From: Escherichia coli
Lineage (GTDB): Bacteria; Pseudomonadota; Gammaproteobacteria; Enterobacterales; Enterobacteriaceae
Reading direction: 5' to 3' (one strand)
Assembly: GCF_003334405.1 (NCBI RefSeq)
Contig: NZ_QOWM01000019.1
Length of the DNA: 60,909 nt
Shown: positions 1 to 3,000 of the stretch, one piece after another
How positions within the stretch are numbered: position 1 is the stretch's first letter
Layout of the letters: every line of letters begins with the position of its first letter
Position numbers: made by a program

Positions 1-3000
1 AGATCGGCAACCATATTTACGCAACGCAGGTCGATGGCTGCGGATTGCGGATATTCTTCTTTGTCGATCCAGTTTTTGTTAATGGATAAATCCATCAATT
101 TGTGGACATTTTCGTCGTCCCAGGTCTGGCAGAAAGTGGCCAGGTTCTGACGAGCGTTGCCATCAAGATATAATTCGTCATTGATAATCTGGAATGCGAC
201 ATCGTCGCGCATTTCGTGCAGCGGAAAACGTTTTGATTCTGCGATAGTGGAAATAGACTTCGCACCAAAACGTGAATCGAGTAGTTCCGACCTTAAATCC
301 GTTACTTGCTTCTTATCCATTTTAAACTCCTTAAAATGATTGGATCGCATTAAAAAAGTAGGATTTATCGATAAAGTAAGCAAGTGCAAAGGACTCGTGT
401 TTAAATAACAAAATCCTAATGTTATTTATCGTGAGATATTACGCGAATAATATTTTTTCATTGAAAAACAATACAATATGAAATTCTTGGGTGGTGGTAA
501 GGTGTTTTATGCTGTTATTTTTATGCGCATTCTGTGTCTCCTGAATTATCACGTAAAAATCAGACCTTAAAATATCACTATTAGTACTTGATTATTATTT
601 TGAACGCATTTATAAAATTATTACATAAAAATAGCGAATATTGCTAAAATCCCCGCCAACGATGTGTTGACGGGGCTGTTATTATTTTGGCAATAATACT
701 CCGGTATAAGTATTTACCGGATGAGAAAGATATTGTTTAACGGCAGTGTTAACATTCTCTACCGTCATTTGTTTCAACAATTGCTCCTGCTCAGTCCATG
801 CTGCAGGATCGTCATATTGAATAAGACTATTTACAATAGTGTTCGCTAATTGTTGAACGCTACGCTGTTGGATATCGAGGCTGCGCTGAACGTTTTGCTG
901 GTATTCATTCAGTTCTTGCTCACTGATCCCTTTAGCCAGACGCTTAACCATCACTTCATTCGCTAACGTTAACAGTTCATCATGTCGTTCTGGTTGACAA
1001 GTAAAAGCCAGCAAATGACTGATATCTTTGGCCTGAGGATCAACCGAGAGGCGAGAAGAAACGCTGTATGCTCCAGATGCCTGTTCACGAATATTAACAC
1101 GTAGATCTTTTGCCAGTGCGACGTTAAAAGCATCGAGCGCCATACGCGTCGGCAGATTAACAGGTGTCCGGGAATCATAACGCTTCCACTGTGAAACCTG
1201 TGCCACAGGTTCATTTTGTTCTTTTACAGTAACCGATGCGTTGTCCGTCGCGCGAGTTAATGGTTTACCTGCGGCTAATGGCGAATCAGAGTGTTTGATT
1301 GATCCTAAGTAACGCGTAATTAACGCCACGAGTTTGTCTTCTGCGACATTACCGACAATGACAAACGTGATATCCGCTGGAGATGAAAACAATTGGCGAT
1401 CGGCAGCCAGCGCATCTGCGGCAGTAAACTGTGCAATCTGATTTTCTTGCAGTAATTTCGTGCGGTCATCAGCATAGCGCGTCTCATACATCTGCTGGGC
1501 GAATTTCTCCGCTGGACGCTGGTCGAGCGTTTTCAACGCCTGAATTTGAGCATTTTGTAGCGATGCCCAAATATTATCGTTAATCGTGCTGTGGGTGATT
1601 CGCTGGTTAATCAACTGAAAACCAGGTTCAGGGTTATTAGTCCGCGCGCTAACGGAGAGCAACGTATTCATGCCACTGACTTTACTGCTCATGGTTACCG
1701 AATTTTCCGCACTCCAGCGTTTCAGGCTGGAAGAGGAGAGTTCGCCAACGCCGCTTCCGCTAACTGCTTTATTTGCCAGCGCGATAAGTGATTTTTGCTG
1801 CGCAGGGAAACTTAAATCGCCTTTATTCGATACGGCAATAATTTGTAGCTTTTGCTCTTCACCCTCGGATTTTGCCAGAATAACCCTGGCACCATTGGAA
1901 AGTGTTAATGATGTCAGATTCTCCGCCAGCGTTTCTTTGCTGCTAATTTCCGCCTGTGGGTCTGCGTCTACTGTTAACGATAAATTTCTGCCTGGGAAGA
2001 CGTAAGCCGCCAGCTTTTTGTTGGCGTACTCCTTTTCCAGCGCCAGGATAGCCGCAGGAGACAATGCTTTTTTGGCGGCAACCTCATTGTTTACCATTTG
2101 CTCCCAAAATGCGTCCTGGTTCTTTCTTAACTGCTGCCATTTTTCCGCCAGACTTTGCACGGTAATTTGCTGCCACAGACGTTTCGAAAGTTGATATGTC
2201 TCTTCCGGCGACAAGAACGGCGTATTATTTAATGAGCTGGATGCCAGGCGACTGGTCAGCATACGTAAATCACGTTCAGCTTGCTGATCAACCGCATTTT
2301 TCAGCCAGGTGAGGCGGGTAGATTTGACATCATCGAGTTCTTCAGCAGAAAAACCATGCTGATCAATGGTTGCCAACTCTGCCATTAATGCATTCGCAGC
2401 ATCCTGCATATTATCGTCTCGTGCATTTACACGGAAAAACAGCGACTGATAATCGGGTGCAATTTTAACGCTGCGCGCAGTGCCGCCAGAAATAGTCTTC
2501 AACTCGCCCGACTGTATGCGTTCCTGCAGACGTTGATTGAACAGCTGAACTAACATGCTCCATTCAGCTTGTTCGATAAAGCTTTGCTCATCGTTCACTT
2601 GTACCATTGGCAGGCGATAATAGAGTGCGATGCCGTTCACCCGGTTTTCTTTATCATTAATGATATTAAAGCGCAGGTGGTTTTCGGCTTTTGTCGGCCA
2701 GACGCGATTTTCAGCTGCTTTGTTAGCCGGAAGCTTACTTAAATTATCCTTTATCAGCGCCAGCGCTTCTTTACTGTCGATATCGCCGACCACGATAAAG
2801 GTCATATTATTTGGTTGATACCAGCGTTGATAAAATTGGCGCAATTGTGCCGGTGTGACCGTGGCGACAGTATCCATCAGGCCGATAGGTTCACGGTCTA
2901 AATTACGGGTATTTGCCAGCAGGAAAGGGCGGCGCGCCTGAGAGGTGCGCCATTTCGCATCCTGATGGGCACGCCATTCCTCAGTAATTACGCCACGTTC

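Follow-up and report, generated by a model that had tools for sequence, protein, structure and literature searches.

The analysed stretch of DNA, in the following called the window, comprises 60,909 nucleotides of Escherichia coli and begins within a truncated gene. On the minus strand, positions 1-320 encode the 5′ part of gadB, of which the first 106 codons are present before the gene runs off the window edge. Upstream of it lie the gadBC regulatory region and pqqL (ORF 682-3477, minus strand). From gadB onwards, the window takes in hipBA, the lsr operon, marRAB and mgrR and extends to the left edge of the Qin prophage. The window (1-60909) aligns in one piece to NC_000913.3 1571726-1632636 with 99.94% identity, leaving 32 substitutions and two single-base gaps across 60.9 kb. 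By its sequence, the source strain is a K-12-like E. coli, presented in the orientation of the reference. It is not identical to MG1655: 1865, 3251, 4288 and 6409 are the first positions to differ, and the first of the two gaps lies close to 22407, within the hipB/yneO region.

The partial minus-strand ORF starts with an ATG at 320-318. Its 106 translated residues show 100% identity to GadB of K-12 versus 95% to GadA, and the two proteins are separated at five N-terminal positions (MDKKQVTDL...S versus MDQKLLTDF...A). The adjoining gene is pqqL, whereas gadA is preceded by ccp. On the strength of these five N-terminal differences and of the pqqL neighbour, the partial gene is assigned to gadB, as the initial annotation had proposed, and the annotation of matching DNA is in line with this. 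Many E. coli chromosomes, among them that of K-12 MG1655, match bases 1-700 with 100% identity and have gadB and pqqL annotated there. Each of the 5,426 complete E. coli genomes holds a match to this gadB-pqqL end; the median number of matching places in a genome is two, and gadA accounts for the second.

Sequence and geometry of the GAD box

Upstream of gadB, at 400-419 on the minus strand, we located the 20-mer TTAGGATTTTGTTATTTAAA, the GAD box or RcsB/GadE activator site, which was assigned by its exact match, the published sequence, its invariance and ChIP-exo data. The plus strand at 400-419 is TTTAAATAACAAAATCCTAA, and the 20-mer thus reads 5′ to 3′ on the minus strand. Between the promoter-proximal end of the box (base 400) and the gadB ATG there are 79 nt (321-399). 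An exact 20-mer on the gadB-coding strand, about 80 bp 5′ of the ATG, had been claimed beforehand and was found in just this place. It is the sole match to TTAGGATTTTGTTATTTAAA in 60,909 bases, even with up to three mismatches, and 0.01 matches are expected by chance according to dinucleotide-preserving shuffles. Further copies of the classical GAD box were not detected in the window at this threshold. The GadE motif derived from ChIP-exo, TTARGAWWWWAAATA, has six matches in the window versus 4.2 expected, which gives no evidence of further GadE sites there, and at up to two mismatches it does not recover the classical box.

The characterised GadE-binding site is quoted as TTAGGAttTTgTTATTTAAa (Seo et al. 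2015, PMC4918353), and the 20-mer of the window equals it letter for letter (20/20). A full-text search with the literal 20-mer returned this paper as the only one. According to Castanie-Cornet et al. 2010 (PMC2887963), the GAD box is a 20-bp element whose centre lies 63 bp before the gadA and gadBC transcription starts, with 16 bp between it and the -35 element, and both it and the RcsB box are reported as 'strictly conserved' in gadB. The window reproduces this geometry: the gap to the -35 element is 16 nt, the box is centred about 62 bp before the start, and the GadE-dependent decarboxylase gene gadB lies downstream of it on the same strand. The description of the site as a canonical GAD box was therefore correct, being identical to the published GadE site and in the published arrangement.

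All further promoter elements are encoded on the minus strand. The box is followed by a 16-nt spacer, CACGAGTCCTTTGCAC (399-384), and by the -35 element TTGCTT (378-383), which was read from the sequence. A 17-nt spacer containing CGATAAATCC (377-361) leads to the -10 element TACTTT (355-360), assigned by spacing and invariant in all gad promoters aligned. Boxes around putative -10 and -35 elements also appear in Fig. 2A of PMC2887963. The approximate gadBC start (+1), obtained by conversion of the 'distance to TSS' values that accompany the ChIP-exo peaks (PMC4918353), falls on 348, seven nt downstream of the -10 hexamer, which places the GAD box at about -52 to -71. The gadB Shine-Dalgarno sequence AAGGAG (327-332), likewise read from the sequence, is invariant in all gadA and gadB promoters aligned. 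A generic sigma-70 scan missed the gadB promoter, TTGCTT plus TACTTT being too weak for its 9-of-12 rule; the only site it gave lies on the opposite strand, fewer than in shuffles.

Abutting the -10 element is the RcsB box CGATAAATCCTAC (358-370, minus strand), a repressive RcsB site which was identified by sequence and from the published description. An 8-mer of the GAD box, TAGGATTT (418-411, minus strand), has a counterpart in the RcsB box at 359-366, where it appears reverse-complemented as AAATCCTA. There are four copies of this 8-mer in the whole 60.9-kb window, two of which are those in the GAD box (411-418, minus strand) and the RcsB box (359-366, plus strand). Such a common 8-mer would be consistent with an RcsB half-site shared by both boxes.

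For the gadBC promoter of E. coli K-12, the GAD box was reportedly described by Castanie-Cornet and Foster in 2001. The site of the window is the same locus, with the 20/20 sequence, the 16-nt spacing, the RcsB box at -10, the gadB start and pqqL all alike. No difference was found at the site, and the strain departs from MG1655 elsewhere in the window only.

Conservation among gad promoters and across species

For an estimate of conservation, the window promoter was aligned with one gadA promoter and with three gadB promoters that had been picked solely because their identity overall was low (94-96%). None of the 20 box columns varies in the resulting set of four gadB promoters and one gadA promoter, while the bases adjoining the box on both sides do; the box is thus conserved above its flanks. 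Between gadA and gadB, most of the stretch reaching from the -35 element down to the Shine-Dalgarno sequence is conserved, too.

The gadA promoter carries the identical 20-mer with the identical 79-nt gap to the ATG. It has the same CTTGCTT -35 region, GATAAATCCTAC RcsB box, TACTTT -10 element and AAGGAG ribosome-binding site. In contrast, both box flanks differ between gadA and gadB, and the distance from the box to the GadX/W-like block upstream of it is about 50 nt in gadA versus about 130 nt in gadB. The first base of the RcsB box is G in gadA and C in gadB; CGATAAATCC in gadB of the window versus GGATAAATCC in gadA reflects this published G-to-C difference. Because gadA has an identical box at the same 79-nt distance, the box alone cannot tell gadB from gadA. 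The initial annotation had taken the box as confirmation of gene identity and orientation; this is right for a gad decarboxylase gene and for its orientation, but not for the choice between gadB and gadA.

A species scan with the exact 20-mer, covering one genome per species for about 100,000 bacterial and archaeal species, returned 11 places. Eight are found in Escherichia, namely in E. coli (two genomes with two copies each), Escherichia sp. E1V33 (two), E. albertii and E. whittamii, and each of these eight is located 79-80 nt upstream of a MDQKLL (gadA-type) or MDKKQV (gadB-type) start. The remaining three lie inside unrelated sequence of Lentisphaeria and Bacteroidales MAGs and were taken as chance matches. 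By our own arithmetic, about 0.5 chance matches are expected in about 6x10^11 positions if base composition is uniform; the figure is higher for A+T-rich genomes. At the loci of the species scan, conservation of the box is given by construction, as exact matches were retrieved, but neither the confinement to Escherichia nor the constant distance to the start follows from this retrieval; the only unbiased conservation sample is the small alignment of four gadB and one gadA promoters.

Could the 20-mer be a functionless A+T-rich chance sequence, or the gene after all be gadA? The intergenic region has a G+C content of 30% (47% in the window), exact matches do arise in unrelated MAGs, and box and spacing are the same upstream of gadA. 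However, 0.01 matches are expected in the window, the box is invariant amid variable flanks and occupied by GadE in vivo, the copies in Escherichia always keep their distance to a gad start codon, and protein sequence and neighbouring gene (pqqL, not ccp) both speak for gadB. We rejected the two notions on grounds of uniqueness, conservation, protein identity and species distribution, and regard them as next to impossible.

Around the box there is a perfect 9-nt inverted repeat, TAAATAACA-TTAGGATTT-TGTTATTTA (428-402, minus strand), with its arms at 420-428 and 402-410. It mirrors the right half of the GAD box just upstream of the box. All four aligned gadB promoters carry the repeat, but gadA does not, and neither do two divergent gadB promoters, those of E. 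coli E69 and Escherichia sp. E1V33. A comparable inverted repeat occurs in 8% of dinucleotide shuffles of the 361-nt region. As a candidate functional element it was treated as incidental on account of this frequency and its absence from gadA, E69 and E1V33. There is only a slim chance that the K-12-like repeat forms an extended or alternative symmetric site, bound by a second regulator or by a second RcsB-containing dimer; if so, regulation of gadBC through the inverted-repeat site would be distinct from that of gadA.

Published evidence for GadE at gadBC in vivo and for its partner RcsB

The ChIP-exo coordinates of Seo et al. refer to an older genome version, and we take the addition of 1976 to be the conversion to NC_000913.3; subtraction of 1571725 then yields the position in the window. 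Among the published GadE peaks, P3 at gadBC covers 1570144-1570175 (Supplementary Table 1, PMC4918353). It converts to 395-426 of the window, AATAACA-TTAGGATTTTGTTATTTAAA-CACGA, so that the box is nearly symmetrically bracketed. The conversion is itself supported by the GadE peak falling nearly symmetrically on the box. Its centre is given as 62.5 bp upstream of the start; activation is listed as its effect, and the site counts as a known one that was confirmed, the signal-to-noise ratio being low at 2.78 (PMC4918353). Occupancy by GadE in vivo at gadBC has been shown in this published experiment on the identical sequence. In the same study, deletion of gadE lowered gadB mRNA from 2532 to 29 FPKM (log2 -6.44), a roughly 85-fold loss, and deletion of gadX changed gadB by a log2 of -0.60 only (PMC4918353).

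These numbers also bear on the idea that the 20-mer is mainly a site for the AraC-family regulators GadX and GadW, which would compete for the box. GadW and GadX have indeed been described to repress by competitive binding of GAD box sequences (PMC6128205). However, none of the four GadX ChIP-exo peaks at gadBC lies over the box, the GadX/W motif matches at 548-567 and not at 400-419, and gadB changes by 2^-0.6 without gadX in comparison with 2^-6.4 without gadE (PMC4918353). We consider such a primary role of GadX or GadW very improbable.

The biochemistry of the box has been worked out on the gadA copy. In DNase I experiments, RcsB and GadE together protected -50 to -76 of gadA, whereas GadE free of RcsB gave no protection of the box (PMC2887963). 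Tagged-protein EMSA revealed RcsB and GadE in equal amounts, which was read as a heterodimer, and both proteins together activated gadA transcription in vitro. A G-to-C mutant in the gadA box lost binding as well as GadE-dependent activation. RcsB alone, at high concentration, bound the box at -10 and repressed (all PMC2887963). The initial annotation had proposed a comparison with the promoter footprints: the site corresponds to the footprinted one, but the DNase I footprint and the point mutants were made on gadA, not gadB, and protection needs RcsB with GadE (PMC2887963). Among the papers covered here, which include PMC2887963, PMC4918353 and PMC6128205, we found no in vitro footprint of the gadB copy, nor binding and mutant assays on a gadB fragment like those on gadA. 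For gadB, the direct evidence in these papers consists of ChIP-exo and expression data.

Sites of the RcsA/RcsB type are likewise asymmetric, about 20 bp long and composed of one RcsB-like half, and are bound by RcsB with a LuxR/FixJ-type partner. For the GAD box, by contrast, the partner is GadE, and RcsB does its part at basal activity, with the Rcs phosphorelay not activated. The apparent affinity of RcsB/GadE, about 10 nM, is ten-fold tighter than that of RcsA/RcsB (PMC2887963).

An alternative model would have a GadE homodimer bind and use the box alone, with no role for RcsB. The earlier literature, as summarised in PMC2887963 and PMC6128205, saw GadE bind the box alone, and the ChIP-exo study covered GadE only, not RcsB (PMC4918353). 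Against this stands that MBP-GadE from an rcsB-negative background protects nothing of the region which RcsB and GadE protect together, and the earlier results with GadE alone were put down to RcsB contaminating the GadE preparations (PMC2887963). According to PMC2887963, genetics had already shown that gadB is no longer activated when rcsB is deleted and GadE levels are normal. Use of the box by GadE alone appears very improbable.

With a probability of about 0.94, we regard 400-419 (minus strand) as the GAD box of gadBC, an RcsB/GadE heterodimer activator site within a larger regulatory region. The name RcsB/GadE heterodimer site suits it better than that of a GadE site, because protection of the box on gadA needed RcsB and GadE, and GadE alone gave none. 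GadE, a LuxR-family protein, and unphosphorylated RcsB would bind the box as a heterodimer; the mechanism of gadA is carried over to gadB because the boxes and their spacing are identical. The left half, TTAGGATTT, resembles an RcsB half-site and may be the half taken by RcsB. Occupancy of the box is expected to drive transcription of gadB and gadC, encoding glutamate decarboxylase and the glutamate/GABA antiporter, under acid conditions and in stationary phase. From about -62, activation could proceed by recruitment of RNA polymerase via upstream, class I-like contacts. Under strong Rcs activation, the RcsB box that overlaps the -10 element would lead to repression.

The GAD box is the key cis-element which places GadB and GadC under the control of the master regulator GadE and its partner RcsB. 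GadB decarboxylase and GadC antiporter constitute the most effective acid-resistance system of E. coli. Sequence, position, binding proteins and in vivo occupancy of this locus are all published, and nothing of this is new. For annotation, the box anchors the left edge of the window as gadBC promoter DNA and settles in which direction the truncated gene runs.

The upstream regulatory region

Footprints of GadX and GadW at gadBC were reportedly presented by Tramonti et al. in 2006. Published ChIP-exo peaks of GadX at gadBC are centred at +66, -184, -225 and -268 (PMC4918353), of which the latter three convert to 512-552, 553-593 and 596-636 of the window. Together with the motif, they delimit an upstream GadX/GadW binding region of the gadBC promoter at 512-636 (minus strand). 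The best match of the window to the published GadX/GadW motif is located at 548-567 (minus strand) with one mismatch. Besides the conserved core, this block, GTCTGnTTTTT, is the only other one in common with the gadA promoter. The GadX/GadW sites at about -160 to -290 may form a further part of the regulatory region.

Within the GadX peak region there is a 17-nt direct repeat (544-560 and 616-632), AATTATCACGTAAAAAT and AATTATTACATAAAAAT, with the copies 72 nt apart. Because the first copy overlaps the best GadX/GadW motif match, the two copies look like two putative GadX/W sites. The fourth peak, P5 at +66, converts to 262-302, inside the first gadB codons, where we found no match to the GadX motif at up to three mismatches.

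The upstream limit of the gadB regulatory region is marked by a hairpin at 651-675 (minus strand), located just past the pqqL stop codon and found by folding. It consists of a 10-bp G+C-rich stem followed by AUUUU, with -18.6 kcal/mol and z = -4.8. Hairpin and U-run probably represent the pqqL terminator; a simple terminator scan had missed the structure owing to its short T-run. An Rfam scan of 250-750 on both strands (E<=1) returned nothing, i.e. no described RNA element in the intergenic region. Silencing of gad promoters by H-NS has been described, and the low G+C content of the intergenic region fits with this.

Published GadX ChIP-exo peaks assigned to ydeN convert to about 10883-10913 and 11050-11075 of the window, in the ydeN-ydeO intergenic region. 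Just past these peaks lie ydeO, safA and ydeP, which are acid-resistance genes, and a second part of the same regulatory network is therefore contained in the window.
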